NCBI GenBank assembly: GCA_036726225.1
Contig: DAIMCS010000001.1
Coordinates: 135,776 to 186,884, forward strand
Direction: 5' to 3'
DNA from: Patescibacteria group bacterium
Lineage (GTDB): Bacteria; Patescibacteriota; Doudnabacteria; UBA920
Length of the DNA: 51,109 nucleotides
This document shows, in pieces, positions 43,784 to 47,790 of the stretch. Positions within the stretch are counted from its first letter, which is position 1. Every line of letters begins with the position of its first letter. Under the pieces are notes generated by a model that worked only from the letters and a program-made list of their open reading frames with translations, was not told the DNA's origin and ran no database searches. Position numbers and translations under genes: made by a program.

Positions 43784-44641
43784 TCATTCACTTTTTGGCC
43801 TATACATAATTGCCTCGGCCAAATGCTCAACGTTCAAATTTTCACTTTCGTTCAAATCTGCAATGGTGCGGGCAACTTTTAAAATCCGGTGCAGGGAGCG
43901 GCCGGAAAAATTATACTGTTTCATTGCCTGCCTGACAATCTGCTGCTCCTTCTCCCCTAACCTGCAAAACTGTTTAAGTTCTATAATCGACATTTCACTG
44001 TTAGTTTTGCTACCCCCAAATCTTTTTTGCTGCACACCCCGCGCCTTTTGCACCCGCATCTTGATACTTTCAGAATTTTCAGCCGTATTTTCTGCTGACA
44101 TTTTTTCATAAGGCAGCCTGGGGACTTCCACGTGCAGGTCAATTCGGTCCAAAAGCGGGCCGGAAATTTTTTTCTGATATTTAAAAACCTGGCCGGGACT
44201 GCAAATGCAGGCTTTGTTTAAGTCGCCCAAATAGCCGCAGGGGCAGGGGTTCTGCGCGGCTACCAAAGTAAATTTTGCCGGAAAGGTAAAACTGCCCGAG
44301 GCCCTGGCCACAGTTACAATGCCGTCTTCCAGCGGCTGCCTTAAAGCTTCCAAAACATTCCTGGGGAATTCCGGAAATTCGTCTAAAAATAAAATGCCGC
44401 GGTGGGACAAAGTTATTTCTCCGGGACGGGGGTTAGTGCCGCCGCCGACTAAAGCGATGTTTGAAGTAGTATGATGCGGGCTGCGCACAGGGCGGCTGGA
44501 AATAAAACTGTCTTTTAGTTTGCCCGAAATGCTGTAAATTTTTGTCAGTTCCAAAGCTTCCTCAAGCGTTAAATCCGGCAAAATACCGGACATGGCCCTG
44601 GCCAGTAAAGTTTTTCCGCTGCCCGGCGGTCCGGAAAGAAG
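43784..44641 (-). pseudogene. comM: comM (YifB/Mg-chelatase-like AAA+) C-terminal part, interrupted by an island
   Basis: LLSGPPGSGKT, RSPHHTTS, PGEITLSHRGILFLDEFPEF and SGPLLDRIDL. Confidence 0.93.
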
Positions 44642-44873
44642 CATTTGATGGTCGCAATTCGGGTAGGGAAAGCCGAGCGCATGTGCCCGAGACTGACCGA
44701 CGTATCCACAGAGATCCAGCACGGACCTGCGAATTTGAGATCGATAGATGTCTGACTCAGACATTGACGATTAATCCCAAAGGATCAGATGGGAAGTTTG
44801 TAAGCAGGAAAACGCTTGTAACGCGATTAATCAGTTTGTTAGAAGGCCGACGGCGAACATTGTCATCGAGCAG

Positions 44874-45170
44874 CTATTCCAGAAGCTTGTCGAATACGTC
44901 AGGATATCCGTAGTTCACTGCCCCACGATTGCCTGGATTGCCGGGGTTTCCCGCGTTTCCAGGATTGCCCGGATGGCCGATGTTGCCGTAATTGCCCATG
45001 TGCCGATCGACGACCATATCTTTATAGAGTTCGCCGACGTAAGGCCCCGATAACTTGTGCACGTGCGTTCCTCGAATCTGGCCCACAGCTGAACCGTTCA
45101 TTGTGTAAATGAACCGATCACGCCAGAATCCCACTGCCACGCCATTGCTCTTGTAAATATAGTTTGTCAT
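44874..45170 (-). CDS. Four-fold beta-flower-like small protein with a GNPGN repeat tail
   Basis: Repeats of (I/V)(Y/H)xxxGxxVG, then GNPGNAGNPGNPGN; starts 10 nt after the OLD stop. Confidence 0.7.
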   Translation of the reverse strand: MTNYIYKSNGVAVGFWRDRFIYTMNGSAVGQIRGTHVHKLSGPYVGELYKDMVVDRHMGNYGNIGHPGNPGNAGNPGNPGNRGAVNYGYPDVFDKLLE

Positions 45171-45180
45171 TTGTTTTAAG

Positions 45181-46473
45181 TTAATTAGCAACTGACCACT
45201 CAAGAATGTTCTTCACGAAATCAGGAACGCCACTCTCCAAGTCGTTTGCTATAAGACGTTGGCGGATGGGTTTGCTCTGGCTCGGATAACGCTGACAGAG
45301 TTCTTGATATTTTTTCTCGCCCAACGCTGCTCGCAATTCATCTTCAAACCGCTTGCTAAATTTCCATATGGTCGTGGCACCGTCCTTCAGATTCTCTAGG
45401 TCAGCGTTGAAGGCCGCTTCCTTGCCCGCGTTCTTGTCATCCTTATTGAAATCAGAAGAATCCTCGTCGTAGCAAACGGCCGTTTTGATGCCGAATGATT
45501 TCGCGATATTGACGAACTCAGGTAAGTTGCGCTTGCCTCCGACTTCCACGACGGTTACACCCTCACGGTCCAGATCGATTTTCAACTTCATCGCATACTC
45601 AGGAAACGCCAACTTCTCGGTGTCACCTTCTACCAACACCAGCTTCTTTGCAAAAAACAGCTCATTACGCTCAGGATCCAATTCTTTTCGGAGTTTCTCT
45701 TTACGCTGCGCCGTGATCGGGAGACTAGACGTCCGTGTTTTTGTTCCATCGTTGTCTTTCGTGACCAATACGACTTCGTTGTATTCAGGAATCGTTACAA
45801 AGTGCGGAGAGTGCGTAGTGTAAATGACCTGATTGGTGGTTCCGATATCGCGCAGTGTTCGGTACAGCGACCTCTGCATCTGCGGATGCATGTACATCTC
45901 AGGTTCTTCGATGAGAAAGATGGCTCCATGCTTCCGTCGTTCCTCGAAGGCGCGCAAAATGGCAATCACTAAAGAATTCTGTACGCCGCCTCCCAACTGT
46001 GTAGCATCGATTGTGAATTCACCCTCGCGGATAAACAATTTGATCGCCCTATAAAAATCCAGCGATGTGAATGGTGCGAAATAGAAATCAAGCTTGTCGG
46101 CATGTTGGACAGGATCAAACCCCAGCTGTGATAGCGCATTATCTTTAATACTCTTCTCTAAACGGCTAAATTCGTCGGTGTGCAATAAGTCCATCATGCT
46201 CTGCATAAGAATGTCGAATTGCTGTTTTCTAGATCTACTAACCGACTGCCCACTAGGGTCGACGCATTCGATAACGTTGTCAGTCCGACGAAAGGCGTCA
46301 TCGAAGACGTTCACCGTCAACCAACGAGAATTGAACACCTTCTCCAATGCCGCCAGCAGGTTGCTCTTACCGGTATTGTTTGCGCCGACGATGGCTGCAA
46401 TTTGAGGAACATCAAGGTCGAGGGGACCTTGAATCGATCGGAAATTTTCAATATGAAGACGAGATATCCGCAT
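45181..46473 (-). CDS. OLD-family ATP-dependent nuclease (ABC ATPase + TOPRIM)
   Basis: LHIENFRSI, GANNTGKSNL, LIEEPEMYMHP, TTHSP, LVEGDTE, EVGGK and YDED. Confidence 0.92.
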   Translation of the reverse strand: MRISRLHIENFRSIQGPLDLDVPQIAAIVGANNTGKSNLLAALEKVFNSRWLTVNVFDDAFRRTDNVIECVDPSGQSVSRSRKQQFDILMQSMMDLLHTDEFSRLEKSIKDNALSQLGFDPVQHADKLDFYFAPFTSLDFYRAIKLFIREGEFTIDATQLGGGVQNSLVIAILRAFEERRKHGAIFLIEEPEMYMHPQMQRSLYRTLRDIGTTNQVIYTTHSPHFVTIPEYNEVVLVTKDNDGTKTRTSSLPITAQRKEKLRKELDPERNELFFAKKLVLVEGDTEKLAFPEYAMKLKIDLDREGVTVVEVGGKRNLPEFVNIAKSFGIKTAVCYDEDSSDFNKDDKNAGKEAAFNADLENLKDGATTIWKFSKRFEDELRAALGEKKYQELCQRYPSQSKPIRQRLIANDLESGVPDFVKNILEWSVAN

Positions 46474-46541
46474 GGGTGTGGCAAGAATAATGACTTCATT
46501 ATGAAGTCTACTCAGCTTTTGTCAAACTCAGCGCGGCAGGC

Positions 46542-46709
46542 TTAATAAAGACGCAGTTGACCGGAACACTCGGAGTCATCTCTCGAAGTGTCGCCATTGT
46601 CGGCCAATAGAATACGAAAGACCCGCCTTAGCCGCTCCTCGGCATTCGGAACCTCGTCATATTCCCAAATGACTTCGATATTTGGTTGTTGTTTCTTCCT
46701 CTTTCCCAT
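46542..46709 (-). CDS. 55-aa hypothetical protein in the island
   Basis: MGKRKKQQPNIEVIWEYDEVPNAEERLRRVFRILL; upstream of and co-oriented with OLD. Confidence 0.5.
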   Translation of the reverse strand: MGKRKKQQPNIEVIWEYDEVPNAEERLRRVFRILLADNGDTSRDDSECSGQLRLY

Positions 46710-46884
46710 AGAGGAAGAATAGCGGGCAAATATCCACAGTACCAAGGCGGCGGCGCTCGGTTTTCCCTTCTGTGCAACCGCAACAATAATTGGTACGGTG
46801 GAAAAACTCATTTGCCGGCTCAGAACTTAAACGGCAAATGCGTTTTACCTTAGCTGAAAAATGCTCGGGGGCTTTTCGGATTGC

Positions 46885-46920
46885 CGGGAGGGCACGGAGA
46901 TAAGGCATTGTGGTCGCAAT
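46885..46920. other. Internal att-like site in the island
   Basis: GTGGTCGCAAT arm matches the left-junction arm. The minus strand reads HNALSPCPPGNPKS, in register with comM HNILLSGPPGSGKT. Confidence 0.6.
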
Positions 46921-47181
46921 ACAACACTGGAAAACTTCGTCACATCATTTGAATTGAACGCAAATACTCCACAGATTGAGGAGTGGTGGCTCAAGCAAGG
47001 AAGGGGGCCGAAGGGCCGCTATGTCAGAGCCGAGACGGCATCGCGCTCGGCCAGAGATGGAAGCCGTTTCTGAGACGGGATTCTCACGGAATATTCGTAC
47101 AATCGCTGTCAACCTCCAGTGTTTGGGAGTTCCGGAATGATTTTCTATTGGGTCCAACTATCGTCTGCTCTGCTCACTCCG

Positions 47182-47790
47182 ATAATCGCTATTCGGGATG
47201 AAACTCTGAATCGGGTTGTTTGGGATGCTGTTGTCACTGCAATCCTGGATCCCGATCTGATAGCGACGCAGGTTGAAAAACTCCAACACGAACGGCAACA
47301 GGAGAAGCCTCCCGGGGAGACCGAACAGAAAGAAATCGATGCGGGACTTAAACAGCTACAGAATGAAGAGGCACGGTTGCTTGAAGCCTATCGGCTGGAA
47401 ATCATCTCGGCGGCTCAACTCAACCAGGAACTGGAGAAGCTGAATCCCCGCAAGACTCCGTTATTAGATCGCCAAGCCAAGTTGGCGGTCAATCTGGCGA
47501 GACCGCCTCTACCGGTTGTCCAACGCTCCATTCGAGAGTACTGCGAACTCGCCGCTGCCAACATTCGATCCCTGAATTTCGAGCAGCGGCAAGAATTTTT
47601 GAGAACTCTGATCAAAGCGATTGTTTTCGAGGGGAAATCTGTTCGGATTCGAGGGCTGATTCCCATCAGCTCCCGGCCTGACAAGCCGGCCGTACCAGAA
47701 TCGCCGAGCAGCTCCGGTCACGGACGGATTGAGACCACCGCAATAGTATATTGTGAGAACCGCTGGCTGCAATTTCCAAAGCCCTTTTAG
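47182..47790 (+). pseudogene. C-terminal fragment of a large serine recombinase (catalytic, recombinase and Zn-ribbon parts missing)
   Basis: IRDETLNRVVWDAV..ILDPD, coiled coil with LLEAYRLEIIS..QL and FEQRQEFLRTLIKAIVF. The frame crosses the right junction. Confidence 0.8.

Follow-up and report, generated by a model that had tools for sequence, protein, structure and literature searches.

Serine integrases are widely used genome-engineering tools, and to our knowledge the one-way behaviour of large serine recombinases (LSRs) is attributed solely to their attachment (att) sites, to the coiled coil and to a distinct directionality factor. The SSV1 integrase, a tyrosine recombinase of archaeal viruses, is split far from its C-terminus. 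In integrases of the SSV1 type the open reading frame (ORF) spans attP and integration splits it (PMC4383910), while in Mx8 attP lies within the integrase coding sequence, such that integration creates a new int 3' end and changes both the C-terminus and the properties of the enzyme (PMC6070905, PMC4383910). In BPs-type phages it is the repressor that loses an ssrA-like tag on integration (PMC6109161). Here we analyse an island that splits comM, the gene for a competence helicase, in a 51,109-nucleotide stretch of DNA from a Patescibacteria group bacterium (contig DAIMCS010000001.1, positions 135,776 to 186,884; this whole stretch is referred to as the window), together with the large family of LSRs to which the integrase remnant in the island belongs and of which many members are integrated in comM. 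The insertion in comM at an AG dinucleotide, the att site in frame within the integrase gene and the replacement of a conserved tail on integration are descriptive findings which we hold with high confidence.

Two further systems are close in other respects. The LSR sr1WO of phage WO is described as integrating into a magnesium chelatase (comM-type) gene, with gene halves on both flanks (PMC9203015), and LSR targets as enriched in competence genes (PMC10083194). For the SPbeta integrase SprA, the recombination directionality factor has its binding site on DBD2 and on the hinge at the coiled-coil base, and F532, a residue of the extreme C-terminus, matters for directionality (PMC11722253).

The present family resembles Mx8 IntP/IntX in having attP inside the integrase gene and a C-terminus altered by integration, and the SSV1 type in having an integrase ORF that spans attP. 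Both are analogues, since the relatives found here are Resolvase/Recombinase-domain proteins and not tyrosine recombinases. Unlike Mx8, in which a tyrosine recombinase uses a tRNA-linked attB, an LSR here makes a 2-bp crossover in comM and the displaced tail has conserved motifs. In a possible parallel to the mycobacteriophages BPs and Brujita, many site-intact tails end in a way that by analogy could direct degradation (Ala-Ala); in those phages, however, a tyrosine integrase splits the repressor, whereas here the integrase splits its own gene and a short-tail lineage has no Ala-Ala. Like sr1WO, the LSR splits a comM-type gene, and the portion of the WO report available to us makes no statement about an attP inside the recombinase ORF. 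As for SprA, the predicted extra C-terminal strand follows the last DBD2 hairpin, but integration leaves the C-terminus of the SPbeta enzyme unchanged, whereas here the C-terminal element is present or absent according to whether the att site is intact. Phage R4 was considered as a precedent and rejected, its attP core lying 27-38 bp upstream of the sre start codon and not inside the ORF. A limited literature search, which is weak evidence of absence, returned no report of an attP inside a serine integrase's own 3' coding region. Integrase genes that span attP and tag-removing integration are already known, and within that search the LSR version appears to be new.

comM is split by a serine-recombinase insertion

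Deletion of positions 44642-47746 (3105 bp) rebuilds a 501-aa ComM ORF that reads ...AASGSHNI|LLSGPPGSGKT... across the repaired joint, and deletion of 44640-47744 gives the same product. The two parts of the gene, both on the minus strand and both delimited by this in-frame repair, are the C-terminal part from Walker A onward (43784..44641, codons ~216-501; Pfam Mg_chelatase, 1.1e-80, and Mg_chelatase_C) and the N-terminal part (47747..48394, codons 1-~215; Pfam ChlI, 8.7e-44, and the start of Mg_chelatase). The AG at 44640-41 and 47745-46 is the sole identity common to both junctions. Junctions that have 2 bp in common and show no target duplication are characteristic of serine recombinases; tyrosine integrases and transposases do not leave this pattern. 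On these grounds, and given the clear LSR homology described below, a tyrosine-integrase or transposon origin was rejected. Scans with Rfam and for tRNA genes found nothing at either junction, and the base composition of the island is only weakly distinct from that of its flanks. The insertion was made by a serine recombinase at the AG, just upstream of the Walker A codons.

When the island is circularised, its ends read ATTGAGACCAC-CGCAAT-AG-CATTTG-ATGGTCGCAAT. The arms ATTGAGACCAC (47728-38) and ATGGTCGCAAT (44648-58) are complementary at 9/11 positions, each 6 nt from the AG and 14 nt apart, and the rebuilt joint is a palindrome, ATTGAGACCAC-N14-ATGGTCGCAAT, symmetric about the AG. In the integrated state, attL (44623..44658, plus strand) consists of the comM-derived B arm CCGGCGGTCCG, the AG, a 6-nt spacer and the P' arm ATGGTCGCAAT, which matches the family consensus GTGGTCGCAAT at 10/11 positions. 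The element half of attR (47728..47746, plus strand) consists of the P arm, a 6-nt spacer and the AG, a geometry also seen in four loci of relatives, L026, L015, L039 and L041 (we label such loci L and their proteins P). The 51-kb window holds five arm matches with at most one mismatch, against ~0.8 expected, and three of the five are inside the 3.1-kb island. Further along, GGGGTCGCAAT at 49285-49295 matches the P' arm consensus at 10/11 positions with a TAA directly after it and may be a chance match (~0.8 expected per window); the ~830 bp around it (49180-50000) contain no called gene and no Rfam family at the gathering threshold.

The integrase frame runs through both versions of the joint. 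In the integrated ORF the terminus is ...RIETTAI-V-YCENRWLQFPKPF*, of which the host-encoded end (47747..47790, plus strand) completes the V and then supplies YCENRWLQFPKPF and the stop from antisense comM. At the circular joint the ORF stays in frame (...TTAIAFDGRNSG...CEFEI...KGSDGKFV...) for 89 further codons, and this post-crossover frame, here called Tail 1 (44642..44913, plus strand; AFDGRNSGRES...CEFEI...PKGSDGKFV..., 89 codons and a stop), displays GRN, FE[LIM] and PxxxGKF motifs. A preliminary description of the window had reported a comM-integrated island whose crossover lies within the integrase reading frame. Its excision, AG, arms and peptides are correct in every coordinate and sequence, the insertion is indeed the work of a serine recombinase, and in relatives, too, the frame passes through the site into a tail.

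The enzyme itself is no longer encoded in the island. What remains (47107..47746, plus strand) is a pseudogene for the C-terminal ~210 residues of an LSR, identified by its phrog_95 match, its homology to P0003 and its 764 relatives, and comprising a decayed zinc-ribbon end, the coiled coil, the last beta-hairpin, the linker and the P-arm codons. The ORF at 47119-47790 has no Pfam match. It matches the PHROG integrase family phrog_95 (profile positions 420-562/651) and, weakly, the coiled coil and C-terminal part of the A118 serine integrase, and its 764 relatives in a representative protein library include full-length proteins to which it aligns at residues ~355-525. Those full-length relatives are 540-660 aa long and have Resolvase, Recombinase (PF07508) and Zn_ribbon_recom (PF13408) domains. 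The window is homologous to P0003 from 47107 onward, a point within the latter half of the zinc ribbon, with 43% identity; the Cys and His residues are lost, the metal-binding segment CSCPYVGDPCHGRFYYRC having become CQPPVFG--SSGMIFYWV. No catalytic Resolvase/Recombinase domain was found in the 51-kb window, either with Pfam or by tblastn with residues 1-320 of relatives. Judged from these comparisons, the window integrase is a 5'-truncated pseudogene, a gene fragment of the LSR family as opposed to a member enzyme, so that the island is unable to integrate or excise by itself.

Ten further contigs, obtained in several sequencing runs, carry the 4.4-kb region of the island with 100% identity (samples with this organism include SRR6448456, SRR6448376, SRR5468956 and ERZ27267673), and the exact repaired ComM sequence is absent from a collection of 15 billion proteins. 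This copy is a fixed fossil and not a working switch, a non-autonomous remnant of one or two integrative elements. The preliminary description had suggested on/off control of the competence helicase; with a dead integrase, identical contigs and no record of a repaired ComM, such control is not operating here, and for the same reasons the island does not show the precise excision that characterises 'active lysogeny' switch elements. In practical terms, what inactivates comM in the window is a dead remnant with a gene for an OLD-family nuclease.

An att palindrome within the integrase reading frame

After their last beta-hairpin (...VRIRGxIP), relatives often have a 12-residue motif, I-[AE]-[TS]-T-x5-G-R-N. 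The DNA that encodes it in the metagenome loci is a 36-nt palindrome, ATTGCGACCAC-N14-GTGGTCGCAAT; the P0049-type version is ATTGCGTCCACGACACATTGGTGTCGTGAACGCAAT. All 12 metagenome-locus instances start with the codon ATT and end with AAT, always with a spacing of 12 codons, and GGT and CGC predominate at codons 10 and 11. Since the codons for Ile-Ala-Thr (ATT GCG ACC) are the reverse complement of those for Gly-Arg-Asn (GGT CGC AAT), the protein motif is an image of the DNA site in a fixed phase. The window junction falls at the exact centre of this family palindrome, and attP lies within the integrase reading frame in the family as in the window remnant. Intact relatives do not end before the att site. 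They read through the same palindrome in the same fixed frame, and the frame of the tail beyond it is kept, which is as the preliminary description anticipated.

Junctions with the same structure were mapped in the window and in L026, L015, L039 (whose contig measures 1.19 Mb) and L041 (from an assembly of Omnitrophica), each consisting of the P arm, 6 nt, the AG and then antisense comM after GGHN[IAL] (GSHNI in the window). In L043, a prophage-like element with a terminase small subunit, and in L044, a mobilisable element with a coupling protein and relaxase, an antisense ChlI/Mg_chelatase gene overlaps the 3' end of the intact integrase gene. L045 also has an intact LSR gene; its contig ends 62 bp past the integrase, so its assignment to comM is made solely from its antisense-comM type of tail. 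Other elements occupy the same comM position in the opposite (sense) orientation, namely L021, L029, L046 and the in-frame Int-ComM fusion P0039, an 832-aa protein in which the integrase is fused to the C-terminal part of ComM. The integrase frame crosses the junction into comM in all nine integrated relatives that were checked, in either orientation, and the tails of the antisense-inserted ones end in host-derived residues resembling YCENRWLQFPKPF of the window. There is a correlation between insertion orientation and the dinucleotide at the centre of the att site: in the direction of the integrase it is AG for antisense and CT or TT for sense insertions, which would explain the reversal. The integration-dependent exchange of the C-terminus that was proposed for the window thus holds for intact relatives integrated in comM; a working switch in the window copy, whose integrase is a pseudogene, is not supported.

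comM is an insertion hotspot for this integrase family in the host lineage of L039, L043 and L044. Downstream of comM these three loci have the same host neighbourhood (DUF212, LysM-YkuD, AccA, PadR) and carry three different elements, of which that in L039 has methyltransferase and KAP NTPase genes. Defence-type genes in relatives include HerA with AAA_15, a caspase-helicase fusion, restriction-modification genes and GmrSD, and L041 has a tyrosine integrase beside its LSR, such that elements of this kind may use either enzyme. Taken together, the loci define a broad comM-targeting set of prophage-like, mobilisable and defence-gene-carrying elements with a common conserved 36-nt attP. Among IMG/VR viral contigs, neither a protein-pattern search for relatives nor a DNA-pattern search for attP and attL gave a match, so that catalogued viral contigs do not represent these elements, and retrieval from the genome collection gave a single locus, L012, a chromosomal pseudogene.

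The palindrome occurs in other settings as well, and in many members it might serve mainly for something other than comM integration, as an autoregulatory site or in inversion, resolution or cassette exchange that swaps tails and cargo. Site-intact chromosomal copies (L042, L016 and L012), two or three tandem site copies in some tails and orphan sites with tails downstream of integrases would fit such a use. So would a group of three loci in which the integrase genes (L017 1-1673, L018 7104-8777 and L019 4968-6641) are 94-97% identical to ~30 nt past the palindrome centre and then continue into three different tails, the downstream blocks of L018 and L019 being inverted and reordered relative to one another from the site onward. 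We nevertheless consider this explanation very unlikely. Eleven checked copies (the window, L026, L015, L039, L041, L043, L044, L021, L029, L046 and P0039) break at the palindrome and join comM, with the breakpoint mapped to its centre in 7/11; in the window the far end of the insertion carries the matching P' half; and a search for an inverted partner site in L018 and L019 found none.

The tandem palindromes come in two or three copies, 45-57 nt apart and all in frame, at L013 4170-4250, L016 10600-10680 and L027 1149-1230, and tails of this kind are found in the proteins P0004, P0035, P0047 and P0091. In L014 (3079-3140) an intact integrase has a P arm that continues, in sense orientation, into a short and degenerate stretch resembling Walker A (LLYGPPCGGTNSGR*) with no comM gene after it, which may be a decayed target or a decoy half-site. 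The tandem sites and the differing tails of L017, L018 and L019 leave room for an exchange of tails or cargo at the site. In an elaboration that we regard as improbable, the tails would be exchangeable modules: the integrase would recombine its in-gene site with downstream copies of a half-site plus tail, or with comM-like decoys, the state of the tail would set directionality or stability, and each exchange would swap a tail together with the adjoining cargo block, much as in an integron or shufflon but built on an LSR.

The displaced tail and its possible role

Several observations bear on whether the sequence after the site genuinely belongs to the protein. An F-[ED]-[LIMF] motif occurs at no fixed distance past the site (4-40 residues), with synonymous variation in its codons (TTT/TTC, GAA/GAG/GAC/GAT, TTG/ATG/TTA/ATT/ATC). 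The C-terminus is Ala-Ala, often as LAA, RAA or KAA, in 13/40 site-intact representatives against ~1% by chance on a rough estimate, with variation in both the terminal Ala codons and the stop codons; none of the integrated tails examined ends in this way. In one lineage the tail is ~100 residues longer and contains a winged-helix domain (HTH_33 / HTH_Tnp_Tc3_2). A tail profile built from relatives, with the window left out, has its best six-frame match in the window at 44506-44910 (E 0.006), a segment in which GRN, CEFEI and PKGSDGKF appear in the family order.

Predicted structures differ between the two states. In the AlphaFold2 model of P0049, whose site is intact, the linker and the palindrome-encoded residues (520-541) have a predicted local distance difference test score (pLDDT) below 50, while residues 544-552 (SFEFELETA) are assigned by DSSP as a beta-strand with pLDDT 74-87, following the last DBD2 hairpin. 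In the model of P0176, which is integrated and encoded on a 1.19-Mb contig (ERZ25039512 contig_50884), everything past residue 511 is coil with pLDDT 36-45. Both models contain a long helical hairpin. From the codon variation, the Ala-Ala ends, the winged helix, the profile match and the models, we conclude that the tail is under selection at the protein level and is a real part of the protein.

It could be argued instead that the overlap is incidental, a palindrome that merely sits at the end of the gene and is read through, with a functionless tail and conservation of the DNA site only. The 12-residue motif is indeed dictated by the DNA, with fixed codons, and is modelled as disordered; there is much variation in the length and sequence of the tails; in L028 a stop codon interrupts the motif; and integrated intact integrases apparently persist without the tail. 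An incidental overlap is nonetheless unlikely, as it leaves unexplained the synonymous codon changes in F-E-[LIM] at variable distances from the site, the excess of Ala-Ala ends with varied codons and stops, the recognisable winged-helix domain of long tails, a confident terminal strand in the intact isoform only and a palindrome reading phase that is the same in all instances examined.

The explanation that we prefer, and consider probable as a whole, combines a decayed LSR remnant in the window, a family with an in-gene attP and two enzyme isoforms that differ. Integration into comM cuts off the tail and puts a short comM-read peptide in its place, which would give two isoforms with different behaviour. 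The palindrome-encoded residues would act only as a floppy linker, beyond which the F-E-[LIM] segment would complete, with one more beta-strand, the zinc-ribbon/DBD2 sheet of the last hairpin beside the coiled-coil base, a region in which the directionality factors of other LSRs act. The Ala-Ala end resembles an ssrA-type degradation tag. On this model the site-intact isoform would be structurally complete and short-lived or differently regulated, while the integrated isoform would have neither strand nor tag. The position of the strand at DBD2, the role of the SprA C-terminus and the ssrA-like Ala-Ala together lead us to propose that the isoforms differ in stability, in directionality control or in both. 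That this difference is real and functional is a tentative proposal, to which we give somewhat less than an even chance. If true, integration edits the extreme C-terminus of the enzyme, which loses a structured strand and in many cases a putative degradation tag, and the form of the enzyme records the state of its own att site as an additional layer of control. In the window itself, comM would stay split unless a related element supplied integrase and directionality factor in trans.

A number of observations weigh against this explanation. Neither the P0049-like short-tail lineage nor the window's own tail ends in Ala-Ala. L028, otherwise an intact relative of L027, has an in-frame stop (ATT TAG ACC, ~7034-7036) at the second codon of the motif, and its tail sequence continues beyond it. 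No intact element with both comM ends was recovered, all seven relatives looked up by protein being more than 10 kb long with their left ends unreached; the window is consequently the only case with a P' half and tail at the far end, and no matching P' arm was found in L026, L015, L039 or L041. In L042 the integrase (P0049), with its near-perfect palindrome and tail, is followed by TonB-receptor, ValRS and UvrB genes (preceded, within a few hundred bases of the tail, by what looks like a B12 riboswitch), and the site-intact L016 is part of a larger island, with a tyrosine integrase beside it. Site-intact integrases are thus often chromosomal, and to equate the long isoform with the free state is too simple. 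The island may, finally, be composite, in which case its P and P' arms are perhaps not a native pair.

A second relic, the cargo and other features of the window

This last point arises from a second att-like sequence within the island. An attL-like relic (46850..46920, plus strand) consists of a comM-like left half and a perfect P' arm, GTGGTCGCAAT, at 46910-20. It is followed by the remnant of a second tail, Tail 2 (46921..47073, plus strand; GRN-TTLENFVTSFEL...PKGRYV...), within an ORF at 46861-47073. This is the second match of the tail profile, at an E of 0.9 that is weak on its own; it is in frame with the perfect P' arm and FEL codons are present. Read antisense, the left flank of the relic gives LSPCPPGNPKS where the host comM has LLSGPPGSGKT, and is thus comM-like yet not derived from the host gene. 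It is homologous to the second site of L017 (~6151-6300), which reads antisense LSSCPPGNSKT next to a P' arm. Tail 2 ends 36 bp ahead of the start of integrase homology.

These features suggest that the island may be a composite of two elements, or that an attL-like site may be normal in this lineage. As a composite, it would derive from one element the integrase fragment with its P arm (47107-47746) as well as the half-site and Tail 2 inside the island (46850-47070), and from another Tail 1 with the OLD and Bflower cargo; the rebuilt attP may then join arms from two elements, and it and the long ORF would be chimeric. We regard this as possible but on the doubtful side, and it is compatible with the explanation preferred above. 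Two different tails, each behind its own P' arm, accompany a single integrase fragment, a gap of 36 bp separates Tail 2 from the integrase homology, and the internal left half, comM-like but different from the host comM, is homologous to L017 site 2; extra sites with tails downstream of integrases occur in L017, L023 and L032 as well. Against a composite, the parts of the circularised island follow one another as they do in L017 (integrase, attP, tail, cargo, relic site, second tail), so a two-site layout may be normal in one lineage. Moreover, recombination of attP with attL or attR is not known for serine integrases (PMC3783163), which makes a tandem insertion hard to explain.

The island has three other genes as cargo, all on the minus strand. 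A Bflower-domain protein of 109 aa (44874..45203; Pfam PF21784, 2.7e-10) is encoded by a gene that overlaps the 3' end of that for a 430-aa ATPase-TOPRIM nuclease of the OLD family (GajA/Old-like; 45181..46473), which matches Pfam AAA_15 and OLD-like_TOPRIM and, in PADLOC, GajA (2e-55) and Old (1e-48). The island has no GajB helicase gene and so does not encode a Gabija system as defined; the nuclease is best called a putative stand-alone OLD-family nuclease. An 89-aa ORF (46542..46811) has no family match and is called as a gene in other contigs.

Elsewhere the window contains a complete bacterial 16S rRNA gene (8843-10307, minus strand) and tRNA genes for Val-GAC and Leu-TAG (34356-34432 and 38258-38343). 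In this organism, T4SS_pilin-domain genes form an array upstream of comM.

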